A stretch of 39,183 nt of DNA from Candidatus Micrarchaeota archaeon (GTDB lineage: Archaea > Micrarchaeota > Micrarchaeia > Anstonellales > J096). The stretch spans positions 1 through 39,183 of the forward strand of contig JALVSQ010000021.1 in the NCBI GenBank assembly GCA_027024255.1, in the 5' to 3' direction. Every line of letters begins with the position of its first letter. Position 1 is the stretch's first letter. The notes beneath the pieces were generated by a model, which saw only the letters and a list, made by a program, of their open reading frames with translations, did no database searches and was not told the DNA's origin. The position numbers and the translations under genes were made by a program. Of this stretch, positions 7,150 through 29,428 are shown piece after piece.

Positions 7150-7499
7150 GCTAACTTCCCCCTCCTCTGCGGCCAGTAGTCCAGTTTTTTAAACTTTCCT
7201 TCCTCAAGAATTTTACTTAATTGCCCTGCAAATTCCCGGGCCTTTTCTTTTTGGTAACCGCTGTATCCTCTTTCCTTTGGTACATTCTCTTTAATCTTCA
7301 GAATAACTCCCCCCAAATAATATTCCAGACCCTCTTTCTTAAGCTTCTTGGTGCTTTCTTTTACCTTTTCTTCAATCACCTTAATTCCATTATCAATATT
7401 ATTTTTTTCCTTCGTTTTACCACCTTCTCCTTCCAATAATTTAGCTATTTTTTCTTTCAATTTTTTTATTTTAACAGCCTCCTTTACCATTTCAGCCAC
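7146..7499 (-). CDS. Hypothetical K/E-rich protein
   Basis: 117 aa ORF, GTG start, TTTAAAAA box ~25 bp upstream. Confidence 0.7.
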   Translation of the reverse strand: MAEMVKEAVKIKKLKEKIAKLLEGEGGKTKEKNNIDNGIKVIEEKVKESTKKLKKEGLEYYLGGVILKIKENVPKERGYSGYQKEKAREFAGQLSKILEEGKFKKLDYWPQRRGKLA

Positions 7500-7559
7500 C
7501 TTATTTATTTTACATTGAAGTGTTTTTAAAGAATTATGGTGTTTGAAAGCCTGCTGGAG

Positions 7560-7589
7560 TGTCAGGTAATTCCTTAAAAGAATTTTTCA
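7560..7589. repeat. Dispersed palindromic intergenic element, copy A
   Basis: TGTCAGGTAATTCCTTAAAAGAATTTTTCA matches the reverse complement of 33068-33097 at 28/30. Confidence 0.75.
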
Positions 7590-7623
7590 AGTTTATTAGC
7601 CCCCTATCTCTAACAATTACCAA

Positions 7624-8859
7624 TTACCTGAACAGCATATGTACAGCAAATTTGAGTAACTCAAGAGAGTAAATAGCTATAATAATCTTGAATAATGTGA
7701 ACCTGGCAACATCATCTTTTCTAAGCTCTTCTTTGATTATCTCTTTGTGCTTTAATGCCCATCCAATAAGTGTTTTGCTATCCAGTTTTGGTTTTATTTT
7801 CTTCAACGATCGTCTTGCAGCCTTACTCACAGAAGGCCATTCATGAAATATGTAAAGTACGAGTAATCTCGCTATAGACTTTAAGGCTGTTTTATTCCTG
7901 TTTAATTCATCTTTACTTAAATCAACCAGTAACTCCCCTATCTTTGTTGCAGCTTCTTTTTTAGTATCTTTATCACTATATAAAGTCAACGCATTTAATA
8001 TTTCGAGCAAAGCTTCACAAATATCAGGGTCTTTCCTGTCAATATTTCTCATAATTAGGTCAACCCCCATCATTACTACTGGCTTGGGATACCAGAAAAA
8101 CCAGGCTGACTGAGCCCTTTCTTTTATACTTTCTATTACTTTTTTATCTCCTAAAGCCAGCAAACTCAAAGAAGAGAGAAATCTAACTTCAACCATGGAA
8201 CTGCTTTCTAGTAATTCTATTTTCTTCTTAAATTTAGTGAGTTTTAGCATTCCTATTGCTATTATAGCCCCGGGTCTGAGCTCAAAAAGATTGTTTCGGG
8301 CAGTTTTTTCAATTACTTTTTCAACCTCTCCTGGATTGTTGAAAGCCCATTCAAAAAGGTCTTTATAGTTAAGTTTAAGTTTAATTTTTTCCCATGCTTT
8401 CCCGGCACTTTCCTTAATTTCTTTAACTTCATCTAATGTTAAAATAAACAATGCTGCGAGCAACTTTCGGGACTCTTTATTTTCCAGTTCTTCTTTGCTT
8501 AACCTGCTTAAGACCTCTCCTATTAACTCTGTTGATGCTCTTCTTATGTTAACATCCCAGCTGAATGCCTTTTCAATCAATACCTGAGAACTAACTTTTA
8601 TGGCAACATCTTCTCCAAAACTCCTTTCAATTTCGTTAAATAATTCTAGATTAAAAATTACTCTCTCATCATTTAAATTAAACATATCAATAACTTTCTT
8701 ACTGATATTACTTCTCCATTCATCGAGCTGAGAAGGAGCTATTGTTTCAACAAGCTCTCTTGAAGGGATTCCTTTATTAAACAGGTTTTTAACTACTTCC
8801 TTTTCCCTTTTTATCGCATTTTTAATGAGTTTTTCCTTCATTGGCAATAGCTTTTTCAT
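7624..8859 (-). CDS. HEAT/ARM-repeat-like protein, distant paralog of 31552..32979
   Basis: N-terminal KGIPSRELVETIAPSQ and EIERSFGEDV match paralog KGIPDEKLVRLIAPSQ and EIKERFGEEV; degenerate helical repeats. Confidence 0.72.
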   Translation of the reverse strand: MKKLLPMKEKLIKNAIKREKEVVKNLFNKGIPSRELVETIAPSQLDEWRSNISKKVIDMFNLNDERVIFNLELFNEIERSFGEDVAIKVSSQVLIEKAFSWDVNIRRASTELIGEVLSRLSKEELENKESRKLLAALFILTLDEVKEIKESAGKAWEKIKLKLNYKDLFEWAFNNPGEVEKVIEKTARNNLFELRPGAIIAIGMLKLTKFKKKIELLESSSMVEVRFLSSLSLLALGDKKVIESIKERAQSAWFFWYPKPVVMMGVDLIMRNIDRKDPDICEALLEILNALTLYSDKDTKKEAATKIGELLVDLSKDELNRNKTALKSIARLLVLYIFHEWPSVSKAARRSLKKIKPKLDSKTLIGWALKHKEIIKEELRKDDVARFTLFKIIIAIYSLELLKFAVHMLFR

Positions 8860-16944: not shown

Positions 16945-17017
16945 GCCCCGGTAGCTCAGCTGGTAGAGCGTCCGGCTGTTAACCGGAAGGTCGGCGGTTC
17001 GAGTCCGCCCCGGGGCG
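16945..17017 (+). tRNA. tRNA-Asn(GTT), no intron, CCA not encoded
   Basis: GCCCCGG/CCGGGGC acceptor, TCCGG-CTGTTAA-CCGGA anticodon arm, GGTTCGAGTCC T arm. Confidence 0.97.
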
Positions 17018-20812: not shown

Positions 20813-20887
20813 CGGGCCCGGAGGGATTTGAACCCTCGACCTTCGGCTTAGAAGGCCGCCGCTCTATCCAGGCTGAGCTACGGGCCC
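20813..20887 (-). tRNA. tRNA-Arg(TCT), no intron, CCA not encoded
   Basis: Reverse complement: GGGCCCG acceptor, CT-TCT-AA anticodon loop, GAGGGTTCAAATCCCTC T arm. Confidence 0.96.
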
Positions 20888-24048: not shown

Positions 24049-24121
24049 AGCCCCGTCGTCTAGCGGCCAAGGATGCAGGGTTCTGGCCCCTGTGACCCAG
24101 GTTCAAATCCTGGCGGGGCTA
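24049..24121 (+). tRNA. tRNA-Gln(CTG), A1-U72, CCA not encoded
   Basis: AGCCCCG/CGGGGCT acceptor, CAGGG-TTCTGGC-CCCTG anticodon arm, GGTTCAAATCC. Confidence 0.96.
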
Positions 24122-25647: not shown

Positions 25648-26730
25648 ATGGGCATTCTTGAGAAGATAAAAGAGATAGAGGAGGAGATAAGAAAAACGCA
25701 GTACAACAAAGCCACAGAAAAACATATAGGCATACTAAAAGCAAAGCTGGCAAAGTTGAGAAGAGCTTTGCTTTCATCGAAAAAAGGAGGAGGCCATGGC
25801 TTTAGCATTTCTAAATCAGGTGATGCCACAGTTGCCTTAATCGGCTTTCCTTCTGTTGGAAAATCAACACTATTGGCAAAGCTTACAAATGCCGAAACAA
25901 AGGCAGCAGGCTATGCTTTCACAACATTATCAGTTGTTCCGGGCATGTTGCTGTACAAGAAGGCAAGAATACAGATACTTGATTTACCAGGCATTATAGA
26001 AGGAGCAGCGTACGGTAAAGGAAGGGGTAAAGAGGTTATAAGTGTGGCAAGGAATGCGGATTTGCTTTTAATCCTGCTTGAGCCTTTTAATGCAGAGAAG
26101 CACTTTAAAGCGATAATGAAGGAATTAAAGGCAATGGCCATAAGGCACGGAAAAAGGCCTGAAATATATGTAGAAAGAAAGCATAAAGGAGGCATTGCTT
26201 TATTCTACTCAAAACATTTGAGTGTTGATGAGGAGTTGGTTAAATCGATATTGAATGAGTATGGTATTCACAATGCCAATGTTATAATAAGAGAGGAGGT
26301 AACGCCTGAAAAACTCATAGATGTCCTTGAAAATAACAGGGTTTACATTCCTTACATTGTTGCTATAAACAAAATAGATATGTGTGATGAAGAATTGCTT
26401 AACAAGCTCAGGTTAAAGTTTAAAGATGTCGTATTCATTTCAGCAGAAAAGGGCATTGGCATTGAAGAATTGAAGGAAGCAATATTCAATTCCCTGAATT
26501 TTATAAGGGTTTATACAAAGCCTCTTGGCGGAGAACCTGATCTGGATGAGCCGATGATGTTGAGGAGAGGAGCAACGATAAGAGAGGTTTGCTTAAAACT
26601 CCACAGGGATTTGCTCAAAAACTTCAAATATGCTCTCGTATGGGGGAAAAGCGCTAAATTTCCCGGGCAGAGGGTAGGGCTTGACCATAAACTTGAAGAT
26701 GAGGATATAGTTACCATTGTATCAAGATAA
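25648..26730 (+). CDS. DRG/OBG-family GTPase with TGS domain
   Basis: TQYNKATEKHIG, GFPSVGKST, YAFTT, DLPGIIEGA, NKID, VWGKSAKFPGQRVG. Confidence 0.96.
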   Translation: MGILEKIKEIEEEIRKTQYNKATEKHIGILKAKLAKLRRALLSSKKGGGHGFSISKSGDATVALIGFPSVGKSTLLAKLTNAETKAAGYAFTTLSVVPGMLLYKKARIQILDLPGIIEGAAYGKGRGKEVISVARNADLLLILLEPFNAEKHFKAIMKELKAMAIRHGKRPEIYVERKHKGGIALFYSKHLSVDEELVKSILNEYGIHNANVIIREEVTPEKLIDVLENNRVYIPYIVAINKIDMCDEELLNKLRLKFKDVVFISAEKGIGIEELKEAIFNSLNFIRVYTKPLGGEPDLDEPMMLRRGATIREVCLKLHRDLLKNFKYALVWGKSAKFPGQRVGLDHKLEDEDIVTIVSR

Positions 26731-26782
26731 CAATTTTCACCTCTTTCACAAATTTCACCTTTGCAATTTTCACCTGTTTCAC
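26727..26782 (+). repeat. 56-bp direct repeat, left copy (five TTTCAC units)
   Basis: 53/56 identical to 27938-27993; starts at the DRG stop codon. Confidence 0.95.
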
Positions 26783-26819
26783 CCAAAAGTTTTTAAAATC
26801 TGGGTTTCAAATACCAAGC

Positions 26820-27941
26820 ATGAAAGAACTTAAAGAGTATGTTAAAGCCCTTGAAGATAGACCACTAACATTTGAAGATGAGGATTTATTTGTAGATAGA
26901 GAAATAGAGCTAAAAAAGATGGCAGAGCTTGATTATTACTTTGAAGGAAAGATAATAGGTGTGTGCGGCCAGAGGGGCATAGGAAAAACAACTCTCTTCA
27001 ACTTTTCAAGGTTCCCTGGAAAAAATAAACTTATAATAAAAATTATAGACAGGGAAAATAAACTCTCCATCATATCCAACATAATTGGTGAGATAATTAC
27101 ATATTCAAAAACAAAGGGCTATAATGAGATTGAAAAAATGGGTAAGAAACTCTTCACAAAAATTCATGTATCAAAAAAAGAGGCTGTGGGCATATCCTAT
27201 ATAATTGAATATAAGCAAACAAAGGAGGAAAAAATATCACTCTTTAACTTCTTGAAGTCGTTTAAGAAATTCATGGATTTGTTGAGTAAAAAGGAAAGGC
27301 TCGTGATAGTACTTGATGAAATAGATAAGCAGAAGGTGGATGAGATTCTCCTTCTTGTGGATGCTATAAAAGATGCATTTGTATCAAACTCCATCACTCT
27401 GTTTGTTGCCTTGCCTTATGAATTTTACGAAAACTTTATATCATCAAAGACGAGTTCAACAGAAACTCACAACCTTGAGAATGTATTCAGTTATATGTTC
27501 CTTCTGGAACCTTTTTCAGATGACGATGTGAAGAGAATAATCTCAAGAAGATTTCCTTTAAGTCTTATTGAGGAAGAGGCATTGAATAAGATTGTTGAGT
27601 TTGCTGATGGAAATCCAAGAAAGGCAATAACAACGCTTAAAGAGGCAGGCATAATTGCAGAGGGAAAGATAAGGCTAAGTGATGTAAAAGGAGTTATATC
27701 AAGGTACATAAGAACTTGGATAAAATCAACTAAGTTAACTCAAAATGAACTGAATGTTTTCAGATTAATTGAAGATGGTAGAGTTGCAGATATAACTCAA
27801 GGAGTATCTAAAAAACTCAGAAAATCAAGGTCTGTGGTATACAAGTACTTAAAGAAGTTTGAGGAAGCAGGGCTTTTAAATCTGGAAGGTAAAAATGCTG
27901 AGCTGAGCAGGATGGGCAGGCTTGTAAAGGAAGTGATATAA
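26820..27941 (+). CDS. Archaeal AAA+/STAND-like ATPase with C-terminal winged HTH
   Basis: FVDREIEL, GQRGIGKTT, IVLDEIDK, GNPRKAI, C-terminal KSRSVVYKYLKKFEEAGLL. Confidence 0.85.
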   Translation: MKELKEYVKALEDRPLTFEDEDLFVDREIELKKMAELDYYFEGKIIGVCGQRGIGKTTLFNFSRFPGKNKLIIKIIDRENKLSIISNIIGEIITYSKTKGYNEIEKMGKKLFTKIHVSKKEAVGISYIIEYKQTKEEKISLFNFLKSFKKFMDLLSKKERLVIVLDEIDKQKVDEILLLVDAIKDAFVSNSITLFVALPYEFYENFISSKTSSTETHNLENVFSYMFLLEPFSDDDVKRIISRRFPLSLIEEEALNKIVEFADGNPRKAITTLKEAGIIAEGKIRLSDVKGVISRYIRTWIKSTKLTQNELNVFRLIEDGRVADITQGVSKKLRKSRSVVYKYLKKFEEAGLLNLEGKNAELSRMGRLVKEVI

Positions 27942-27993
27942 CAGTTTTCACCTCTTTCACAAATTTCACCTTTACAATTTTCACCTCTTTCAC
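27938..27993 (+). repeat. 56-bp direct repeat, right copy
   Basis: ATAACAGTTTTCACCTCTTTCACAAATTTCACCTTTACAATTTTCACCTCTTTCAC; starts at the ATPase stop codon. Confidence 0.95.
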
Positions 27994-28331
27994 TTCCTTA
28001 TATGTATTTCAATGCCTTCAACAACGCCCTTTATCAACTTTTTCCTTGCGTTCTTTACGAGCCTTGCTATTGTTGATTTTGAAATATTCATCTTCTTTCC
28101 TGCATTAGCATAGGTCATTCCGAGCATATCAACGAGCCTCATTGCTTCAACCTCGTCAGCGCTTATCTCAACAACACCTTCATTGCACACAGGTTCAGGA
28201 ATAAATCTTTCTATGAGCATCTTTAACGATATTTTCCTTGGCTTGGGCTTTCTACCTACTTTACAGACTCTTTCAGTCCACCACATAATTTGATTGGATA
28301 TAATGAGAATAAAAATGTTTAAGTTATACAC
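27990..28331 (-). CDS. DUF134/UPF0251 HTH protein
   Basis: GRKPKPRKI, FIP, DEVEAMRLVD, AGKKMNISKST, ARKKL. True start is probably downstream of 28331. Confidence 0.88.
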   Translation of the reverse strand: MYNLNIFILIISNQIMWWTERVCKVGRKPKPRKISLKMLIERFIPEPVCNEGVVEISADEVEAMRLVDMLGMTYANAGKKMNISKSTIARLVKNARKKLIKGVVEGIEIHIRK

Positions 28332-28366: not shown

Positions 28367-28483
28367 ATGATAAAGAAAAAGGTTACATCCGAAGAGGGTG
28401 TAATCGTAGTTAAAGAGTACATATTGGGTGTTGAGATAAGTAAGAAGCATATATACAAGCCTAAATCTTCAGGTTCTGATTAA
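28367..28483 (+). CDS. Putative 38-aa small protein
   Basis: Hand translation MIKKKVTSEEGVIVVKEYILGVEISKKHIYKPKSSGSD*; TTTTTAAA box ~25 bp upstream; below ORF track cutoff. Confidence 0.45.
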   Translation: MIKKKVTSEEGVIVVKEYILGVEISKKHIYKPKSSGSD

Positions 28484-29428
28484 AACAGTATTGCACAGTG
28501 GGTCTTCTGTAAAGTATAATGATAAAAAGAGTTTATAATAACCTAAATAAGGAACTCTAAATACAACTTTCCCCAGCACATTGCTCTTTTTTACAGGATA
28601 ATTGCCTTTGTTGAACTTATAAGAGTAAAATTGAATATCCATAACATTGTTATTATCTCCTTGAGTCAGGTAATACTCATTCCCTTTTTCATCAACGAGC
28701 CTTACATAAGCTCTGTGAACTATGTCCCCGAACATGCCAAAGAGTTCTGCCTTTGTTGGTCTATAAACAAGAACATCGTTTGATGCATTGAAGAATATTT
28801 TTTCATCTTTGTACTGGAGGTAAGCAAGGCACGGTTCCTCTTTTTCAGTGTTTAAACCTAAAAACTTTCTTGTGCATTTTTTGTATTGAAAAGTAAAGTT
28901 CCCCTTGACCTCTTTATAATTGCCTGGATTACTGGCAAAATCAACGCACCAACCTTCAAGCGTTGCCTGACAATAACTCATTATTGAACCGGGAATTGAA
29001 CCAAGATACTCATTTCCCCTATACACTCTGGATAAGCCTTTTAGACTGGCTATGTCTTTACCTGTTACATGTAAAACAGGAGCCCTGTATTCATCAAGTC
29101 CTTTGACAAATATTAAATCCCCTCTATCAAGAGAGGGAAGCATGGAGCATGAAACAATAGCACTTATGGGTGTTTCTGTATGCATAACCCTCTGAAACCC
29201 GAACCAGAGGAGTAAGGCAACAATTACAGTCGCTATTGTTTCTAGAATTTCTTTTTTAACACCGTGCTTTTTTATTCCAACATACACCTCAATACCCACT
29301 GCGAAAAGAATGAATAAAGCAGTAAGAACTGCAAATATTACACTCTTCGTTAACAGATAAAAGGCAAGTAAAATAAGCAATATTGCAAACTGAACATTAC
29401 CTTTCTCCAACCGCTCTATCCAGTCCAT
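28469..29428 (-). CDS. Signal peptidase I (Sec11/S26B type) with large insertion
   Basis: IVSCSMLP..RGD, IVHR, TQGDNN, GKVVFRVPYLG. Confidence 0.88.
   Translation of the reverse strand: MDWIERLEKGNVQFAILLILLAFYLLTKSVIFAVLTALFILFAVGIEVYVGIKKHGVKKEILETIATVIVALLLWFGFQRVMHTETPISAIVSCSMLPSLDRGDLIFVKGLDEYRAPVLHVTGKDIASLKGLSRVYRGNEYLGSIPGSIMSYCQATLEGWCVDFASNPGNYKEVKGNFTFQYKKCTRKFLGLNTEKEEPCLAYLQYKDEKIFFNASNDVLVYRPTKAELFGMFGDIVHRAYVRLVDEKGNEYYLTQGDNNNVMDIQFYSYKFNKGNYPVKKSNVLGKVVFRVPYLGYYKLFLSLYFTEDPLCNTVLIRT

Follow-up and report, generated by a model that had tools for sequence, protein, structure and literature searches.

In the iteron-controlled replicons P1 (incC-repA-incA) and mini-F (incB-repE-incC), iterons lie on both sides of the rep gene, and in parC/ParR of plasmid R1 two sets of five 11-bp repeats are placed around the promoter. 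The present study describes a locus in Candidatus Micrarchaeota at which a gene for a 373-aa protein, made up of an AAA+ ATPase and a C-terminal winged helix-turn-helix (wHTH), is bracketed by two arrays of short direct repeats. The window analyzed is the whole 39,183-nt contig C21 of an assembly of 874,647 nt (52 contigs, 36.7% guanine plus cytosine [GC], 90.9% complete). This array–gene–array layout characterizes the entire protein family to which this ATPase belongs, and it is present in two domains of life. The cassette most resembles, and would work most like, the iteron-controlled rep genes of P1 and F. Here, as there, the gene for a DNA-binding protein lies between two direct-repeat arrays of sites (predicted, in the cassette) for that same protein; an upstream array of about five sites stands at the promoter, implying autoregulation, and the presence of two arrays allows pairing. 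However, the cassette protein is an AAA+–wHTH protein, whereas the Rep proteins of P1 and F have a WH1–WH2 structure; its units measure 5–6 bp at 9–11-bp phasing, as opposed to iterons of 17–22 bp; and it resides in the chromosome, no unwinding element, DnaA boxes, or plasmid copy having been found. The R1 system is similar in having two sets of five phased direct repeats that overlap a promoter and in implying a protein filament. In contrast to R1, the cassette has no partner motor gene, its presumed reader is itself an ATPase, the arrays flank the gene, and the location is chromosomal.

A repeat search of the window yielded two direct 56-nt copies, at 26727-26782 and 27938-27993, which are 53/56 identical, lie 1211 nt apart from start to start, and bracket the ATPase gene. 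Each copy contains five TTTCAC units with spacings of 9, 9, 15, and 9, and by inspection all three mismatches between the copies fall outside the units (two of them are counted as spacer in the family tally described below). A dimer pattern, TTTCACNNNTTTCAC, matches the window six times, always inside one of the two copies, and 100 shuffles gave no match. Throughout the assembly, clusters of at least three TTTCAC units are found only at the two window copies, and unit dimers elsewhere occur at chance level (10, versus 4-13 in 10 shuffles). The array is therefore not a common terminator, and a genome-wide terminator, which an earlier, sequence-only reading of this DNA had named among the outcomes that would refute its own proposal, was rejected. 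The same junctions and the gene between them are covered by contigs from three hydrothermal-vent metagenome studies; hence, the repeat pair is not an assembly artifact, as that reading had argued. Its description of the repeats and of the three stop codons was also borne out, with the detail that each copy starts 1 nt before a TAA: the left copy 1 nt ahead of the stop of a DRG-type GTPase gene (26728-26730) and the right copy 1 nt ahead of the ATPase stop (27939-27941). The convergent DUF134 gene ends within the last TTTCAC unit of the right copy, its stop being complementary to 27990-27992. Taken alone, the common “ATAA” start of both copies is weak evidence, because TAA stops are frequent in a 37% GC genome. 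Two single-nucleotide polymorphisms in other strains, 26763 G>A (X3, X5) and 27944 G>A (X2, X5), make the two copies more alike; as each replaces a mismatch with the base of the other copy, we counted them as selection on the arrays. The features of the locus are as follows.

25648..26730, + strand: DRG-type GTPase gene (MMR_HSR1, MMR_HSR1_Xtn, TGS); left flank, outside the cassette, its stop falling within the initial 4 nt of the left repeat
26727..26782, + strand: upstream array, five TTTCAC units at 26735, 26744, 26753, 26768, and 26777; proposed wHTH site and promoter operator
26790..26798, + strand: TATA-like TTTTTAAAA, directly after the array and ~26 nt before the ATG, recognized by eye
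26820..27941, + strand: AAA+/winged-helix gene, 373 aa, supported by its open reading frame (ORF), Pfam, invariant columns, hhalign, and selection in relatives
26967-26990, + strand: Walker A, G50-T57, within the ATPase gene
27303-27329, + strand: Walker B, V162-K170, within the ATPase gene
27609-27626, + strand: GNPRKA sensor-2 motif, within the ATPase gene
27717-27938, + strand: C-terminal wHTH, approximately residues 300-373, within the ATPase gene
27938..27993, + strand: downstream array, second 56-nt copy with five TTTCAC units, ending over the DUF134 stop
27990..28331, − strand: DUF134 gene (PF02001); convergent right flank, outside the cassette and unlinked to the cassette at any other locus

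From the TTTTTAAAA box, the ATPase transcript would be leaderless or nearly so.

Across the family, arrays lie on both sides of the gene in about 39 of the 46 cassettes examined. When scored by script, with an upstream/downstream match score of ≥20 as the criterion (shuffle maximum, 17), 28 of the 38 unique full-length cassettes with usable flanks pass. The score of L087 and L102 comes from another repeat, yet both have arrays at both ends; L027 was missed by the script owing to a miscalled stop and has a repeat of 48/48; and in L090 and L095 both arrays are present, though their spacers have diverged. Both arrays are also present in all eight further second copies. The geometry is constant in Thermotogota, where five units span exactly 38 bp (9, 10-11, 9-10, 9) regardless of unit sequence, while the archaeal TTTCAC arrays (the window and L020) span 41-42 bp. 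Directly after the upstream array comes the promoter, represented by a TATAAT -10 box in bacterial cassettes and, in three archaeal cassettes (the window, L020, and L022), a TATA-like box ~26 nt before the ATG. Family-wide, the downstream array starts 0-12 nt from the ATPase stop or overlaps it. A third bacterial clade carries strict 9-nt tandem arrays 3′ of the gene, with ~27 units in L038, six in L040, and four in L035. The L038 array, in a Bacteroidia metagenome-assembled genome (MAG), occupies ~880-1110 right after the family gene and consists of GTGAAATCA/GCGAAATCA units, the unit being the reverse complement of the TTTCAC motif of the window. Directly upstream of two cassettes lies a radical-SAM gene (L027 4925-5830, Fervidobacterium; L032 5187-5882, Thermotoga).

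Several lines of evidence suggest that the arrays are the predicted docking sites of the ATPase itself. The unit sequence varies by clade (TTTCAC, TTCCC, TTCCA, GTCACA, GTCGAG, GTCGAA, and GTCGGA/GACGG), and the recognition helix of the wHTH varies with it: KRQTAYTYINRL is found with GTCACA, KRTTAYS..QL with GTCGAG, KRTT[AS]YSTIERL with GTCGGA, and KSRS.[VI]YKYL with TTTCAC. On a quick maximum-likelihood tree of 86 proteins, the unit classes require nine changes, close to the minimum of eight and compared with a shuffled mean of 23.3; none of 200 shuffles gave a value as low. Genomes with two cassettes hold cassettes of different class in 7/7 cases. Unit cores show fewer mismatches between the copies (13/652) than spacers do (26/389; Fisher p = 2.7e-4), a tally with a mild bias in that cores were defined from either copy. 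Moreover, the arrays are better conserved than synonymous sites: the array and promoter are ~100% conserved between orthologs that differ by 0.24-0.31 synonymous substitutions per site (dS), the downstream array is conserved as well as the upstream array, and the gene is under purifying selection (ratio of nonsynonymous to synonymous rates, dN/dS, 0.04-0.17). Neither the window genome nor four of the five Thermotogota genomes examined for arrays of one class contain any others, and the system thus looks self-contained. The proposal of the sequence-only reading that the repeats are iteron-like sites for the wHTH is well supported by these comparisons at the level of the family, as the layout is conserved across the family in two domains and the unit covaries with the putative recognition helix.

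Profile comparisons indicate that the ATPase is remotely Orc1/Cdc6-like and a member of no curated family. In an alignment of 16 family sequences, G50, G53, G55, K56, D166, E167, D169, and G264-N265-P266-R267 are invariant; these positions belong to Walker A, Walker B, and the sensor-2 motif with its arginine, and hhalign places them opposite their counterparts in Orc1. The family sensor-2 motif, GNPR(R/K)A, is accompanied by a C-terminal winged helix. The best Pfam neighborhood is ATPase_2 (PF01637), for which the window protein scores 24.3 bits over residues 24-268 and two relatives score 28.0 and 26.3 bits, against a gathering threshold of 33.2; matches to AAA_16, KAP, and Cdc6_lid are weaker. 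Although the protein thus sits closest to the ATPase_2/AAA_16/KAP group (the “archaeal ATPase,” STAND-like proteins), it is sub-threshold there, lacks DUF234 or a sensor-repeat domain, and belongs to a small, sharply bounded family. With Orc1/Cdc6 it shares the AAA+ base, a lid with a G-N/D-x-R sensor-2, a C-terminal winged helix, and repeats beside the gene, which recall the origin recognition box (ORB) and mini-ORB elements. The earlier statement that the protein is not recognizably Orc1 stands: it scores 27.9 bits with TIGR02928 (Orc1/Cdc6), far below the cut-off of 181.3, whereas the true Orc1/Cdc6 of the same genome, on contig C5, scores 355.1 bits. TIGR02928 matches are likewise weak in 9 of the 16 family members (best E 3e-8). 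The same genome encodes a second, short Orc1/Cdc6-like protein (C38:4131-5060; L004 1438-2433, − strand) of 332 aa, which at 131.5 bits is also below that cut-off. Alignment by hhalign gave a probability of 87% against the C5 Orc1, across the AAA+ base and lid, and of 96.5% against the C38 protein, over a stretch that takes in Walker B, the lid, and the winged helix, making the C38 gene the closest match in the genome to the lid and wHTH of the cassette protein; the likeness to Orc1/Cdc6 in the AAA+, lid, and wHTH is thus present but remote. There is no match to Cdc6_C (PF09079), the C terminus giving only sub-threshold ArsR/TrmB/MarR-type and Csa3-type wHTH matches. In addition, half of the family is bacterial, and the cassette sites are direct and flank the gene, whereas ORB elements are inverted around an unwinding element. 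No Rep-family match was obtained in Pfam or NCBIfam, and neither the protein nor the single-ORF cassette contains a recombinase, nuclease, or transposase domain detectable with Pfam, NCBIfam, or a defense library. A sequence search of the PDB returned only the RuvB lid-plus-wHTH and BlaI/MecI-type wHTH. The PADLOC defense models gave weak, partial matches, to mad8 in 11 of the 16 members (best E 8e-7) and to the Csa3/CasR wHTH in some (best E ~1e-11).

The family is small. It comprised 29 proteins in a word-indexed search (5.8 billion) and 40 clusters at E ≤ 1e-30 among 1.84 billion representatives, followed by a sharp drop to a tier of ATPase_2/AAA_16/KAP-like proteins of ~400 aa, some with a MarR-type wHTH, that are not canonical Orc1. 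The homologs come from one Candidatus Micrarchaeota MAG of the same order, which carries four copies, from Thermotogota, including Fervidobacterium islandicum, Marinitoga lauensis, Thermotoga, and Mesoaciditoga, and from a few other bacteria. The family occurs in 50 of 151 Thermotogota species genomes, in 2 of 401 sampled genomes of the archaeal phylum, and in none of 18 genomes of the window's own family. Many homologs lie on contigs of ~1.3-1.4 kb; several copies are present in some genomes, and pseudogenes are seen occasionally. With a family query (A1), no match was confirmed in the metagenome contigs searched and none was found in viral contigs. A metagenome scan for five TTCAC units returned 73 stretches, all of them simple tandem or coding repeats, and none encodes a family member. 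Full-text literature searches, covering abstracts and, for PMC4980987, passages of the text, gave no account of such a cassette.

Comparisons among related genomes suggest that the cassette is a discrete unit of 1.2-1.3 kb and a long-term resident that is occasionally moved or lost, rather than a fast transposon, because it keeps one site across Fervidobacterium species that are only 71% identical in DNA. In three genomes (G114, G107, and G113), copies that are 95-96% identical over ~1322 bp lie in unrelated, repeat-rich flanks, and their homology ends ~20 nt to the left of the upstream array and 5-9 nt to the right of the downstream array, with no target-site duplication at the borders. The flanks L082/L116 (G114:C35) and those in G113 consist of 100-200 nt elements that are repeated about a hundred times in these ~3-Mb Thermotogota genomes, and on account of these elements a search for an empty counterpart of the L082 site identified none. 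The outer edge of the upstream array is also the exact point at which synteny is lost in the pairs L087/L088 and L085/L086. In L087, a 61-69-nt stretch that includes the start of the downstream gene recurs immediately beyond the upstream array (1348-1416 and 2705-2773; 85% identical), and this duplicate could be a remnant of an insertion event or of a paralogous gene start. A transposon of the target-duplicating type, or an insertion sequence, was considered and rejected, since the unit has no transposase or recombinase, its termini are direct repeats, and no target duplication is seen.

Loss is documented as well. The cassette occupies one syntenic site in the Fervidobacterium genomes G041, G047, and G054, and in G045 a single array joins the same left and right flanks with no family gene. 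G045 is as close to G047 (90%) as G054 is, and since the more distant G041 keeps the cassette, the solo array is most simply explained by a deletion between the arrays. The product of a crossover that leaves one repeat behind, as the sequence-only reading had envisaged, thus occurs naturally in one genome whose three relatives hold the full cassette. An extra solo array is present elsewhere in G047. G044 has this same extra array and a second array 3 kb away, both intact and of GTCGAG type (L113, G044:C18, 3219-6293), and between them lie an ATPase_2+DUF234 gene and an AAA_14+DUF4143 gene. In L032 the order is array–ATPase–array–methyltransferase–array, and its close relative L030 is without exactly the segment bearing the S-adenosylmethionine-dependent methyltransferase (7197-8296) and one array.

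Collectively, these data lead us to favor, on balance and with somewhat more confidence than doubt, a model in which the ~1.27-kb unit is a self-contained cassette of a reader and its sites, with ATP-dependent oligomers forming on the arrays and autoregulation of the reader gene. In this model the C-terminal winged helix would read the short units of the arrays that bracket its own gene. ATP-bound protomers would assemble side by side on five phased sites, so that five units at 9-11-bp phasing would nucleate an ATP-dependent oligomer of about five protomers; given the 9-bp phasing, we infer that the complex winds along the DNA. Because the upstream array abuts the promoter (BRE/TATA in archaea, where BRE is the B recognition element, and -35/-10 in Thermotogota), we propose that the amount of the protein is controlled by the upstream complex. 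A second assembly site, able to pair with the first by looping or “handcuffing,” could be provided by the downstream array, which lies at the stop codon and has the same orientation. Finally, as 50-nt direct repeats, the array pair would make the unit prone to deletion, relocation, and capture of neighboring genes. Binding, oligomer size, autoregulation, and pairing are thus all deduced from the sequence comparisons.

Several observations weigh against this model. A clear downstream array is missing from about 7 of the 46 cassettes: in L096, L099, and L103 units are confined to the upstream side, and in L025, L035, L101, and L108 no pair can be clearly made out. The third bacterial clade has no evident upstream array. 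The covariation of helix and unit is confounded by phylogeny, because the unit classes coincide with clades. Five sites do not correspond to the usual hexameric AAA+ ring. In addition, intact arrays occur without a family gene (at E ≤ 1e-15) in G045, which has one, and in G044, which has two; arrays can therefore outlive their reader or serve something else.

Different explanations of the same layout must be considered. One is that the cassette is an integrated minimal replicon of the iteron type, with an Orc-like initiator, arrays that act as origin or copy-control iterons, and a 1.2-kb circle that is released and re-enters at solo arrays. The P1/F-like arrangement with a promoter by the upstream array, the remote similarity to Orc1/Cdc6, the solo array at a syntenic site and the extra one in G047, the presence of cassettes in unrelated flanks, and the consistent difference in class between cassettes of one genome, which resembles incompatibility, are all compatible with it, as are the many homologs on contigs of ~1.3-1.4 kb, though assemblies break at repeats anyway. 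Against this, tblastn searches of 72,556 plasmid and 50,697 phage records gave no match, nor did the viral contigs, and the contigs of four runs, which drop rare variants, contain neither a circle joint nor a deletion joint and show no rise in depth across the cassette; the sole joint found (25773 to 26043) lies inside the DRG gene in one low-depth contig and is unrelated to the cassette. The integration of a small circle, offered in the sequence-only reading, accordingly found no backing in these searches. Furthermore, the conserved unit contains no AT-rich unwinding element, the window repeats are direct rather than inverted around such an element as in ORBs, the units are far shorter than 17-22-bp iterons, the cassette is fixed at one site across Fervidobacterium species, and no means is known by which an Orc-like initiator could load a bacterial helicase. 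We therefore regard a replicon of this kind as unlikely. A chromosomal origin was set aside, since the genome has its own Orc1 and cassette positions vary among complete Thermotogota genomes. It is similarly doubtful that the protein is an ordinary host transcription factor acting on its own promoter, with the downstream copy as a secondary operator or roadblock and relocations as ordinary rearrangements. The upstream array at the promoter, the strong purifying selection, the mostly vertical inheritance within Thermotogota clades with stable Fervidobacterium synteny, and the precedent of oligomerizing ATPase-HTH regulators that act on direct-repeat boxes, such as MalT, fit this explanation. 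However, with no other target sites in the genome such a factor would regulate only itself, its downstream array is equally conserved and is the sole array in the third clade, its occurrence in archaea is very patchy (the 2 genomes in 401), and cassettes 95-96% identical in DNA lie in unrelated flanks, with homology that ends at the array edges.

The sharp edges of the cassette raise the question of whether it is a recombination or mobility module, in which the ATPase pairs the arrays and directs host recombination so that segments are excised, inserted, and swapped, as in integron cassettes or Xer-dependent modules. The breaks in synteny exactly at array edges, the L032 methyltransferase segment that lies between arrays and is exactly missing in L030, the two unrelated ATPase genes enclosed by the G044 arrays, and the solo array in G045 speak for it; nevertheless, neither the protein nor the cassette has a recombinase, nuclease, or transposase domain, there is no target-site duplication, plain homologous recombination between 50-nt repeats accounts for the deletions, and there are only three such cases, which makes this explanation distinctly improbable. 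A single-gene anti-phage or conflict system, with the arrays as a decoy or sensor platform, would explain the patchy distribution, the several copies per genome, the occasional pseudogenes, and the matches to the defense library (mad8 and the Csa3/CasR-type wHTH). Yet all of these matches are weak and fall in generic P-loop or wHTH parts, no effector domain is present, and the neighbors are housekeeping genes rather than defense islands; we consider such a system very improbable. Chance similarity or an assembly artifact has a negligible probability in view of the 100 shuffles without a match, the contigs of three studies, and the recurrence of the layout in dozens of genomes. A more far-reaching possibility, which we put forward tentatively and hold to be unlikely, is that the cassette represents a new class of single-gene selfish element common to Archaea and Bacteria, in which an AAA+ reader polymerizes on 9-bp-phased arrays that form the direct-repeat ends of a 1.2-1.3-kb unit and in which array pairing would lead to excision, re-insertion at solo arrays, and gene capture, or which would constitute the smallest Orc-like replicon, without transposase or integrase.

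At the window locus itself, the neighbors of the cassette are unrelated housekeeping genes, in the order phosphoribosyltransferase, PNP_UDP_1 phosphorylase, DRG GTPase, cassette, DUF134, a 319-aa ORF, RNA polymerase subunit L, and thermosome subunit. Full-length matches to the DRG protein occur in 17 of 18 genomes of the same family (DRG ≤59% identical), and DUF134 adjoins DRG in none of these 17 relatives; because the two genes are apart in all of them, the window offers no empty-site comparison. The 319-aa ORF (28469-29428, − strand) encodes a membrane-type protein with N-terminal hydrophobic segments and no Pfam family, and a 38%-identical homolog of it adjoins DRG in one genome of the same family (L058). 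GC over the cassette is 0.33-0.35, slightly below the 0.37-0.40 alongside, and a shift in GC skew near 27.8 kb coincides with the switch in gene strand. An Rfam scan of the whole window gave nothing at the arrays and matched only three tRNAs, at 16945-17017 (+), 20813-20887 (−), and 24049-24121 (+), the third of which is 2.6 kb upstream of the cassette.

The cassette thus appears to be a new variation on a familiar principle, in which the gene for a DNA-binding protein has arrays of sites for that protein on its two sides, and the chance that it is a selfish cassette of a new kind is a real one. If the favored model of a reader and its sites holds, a portable pair consisting of one ATPase and one 40-bp array would define several orthogonal classes of protein–DNA recognition that are conserved from DPANN-type archaea to Thermotogota. 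The family would then provide a natural series in which changes in the recognition helix track changes in the site, and a simple model for the assembly of AAA+ initiator-like proteins on phased sites. It would also constitute a record of gene exchange between the archaea and bacteria of hot springs or vents, and it may represent a previously undescribed type of mobile or replicating unit. Cultivable hosts, among them Fervidobacterium islandicum, Marinitoga, and Thermotoga, make the cassette directly testable.

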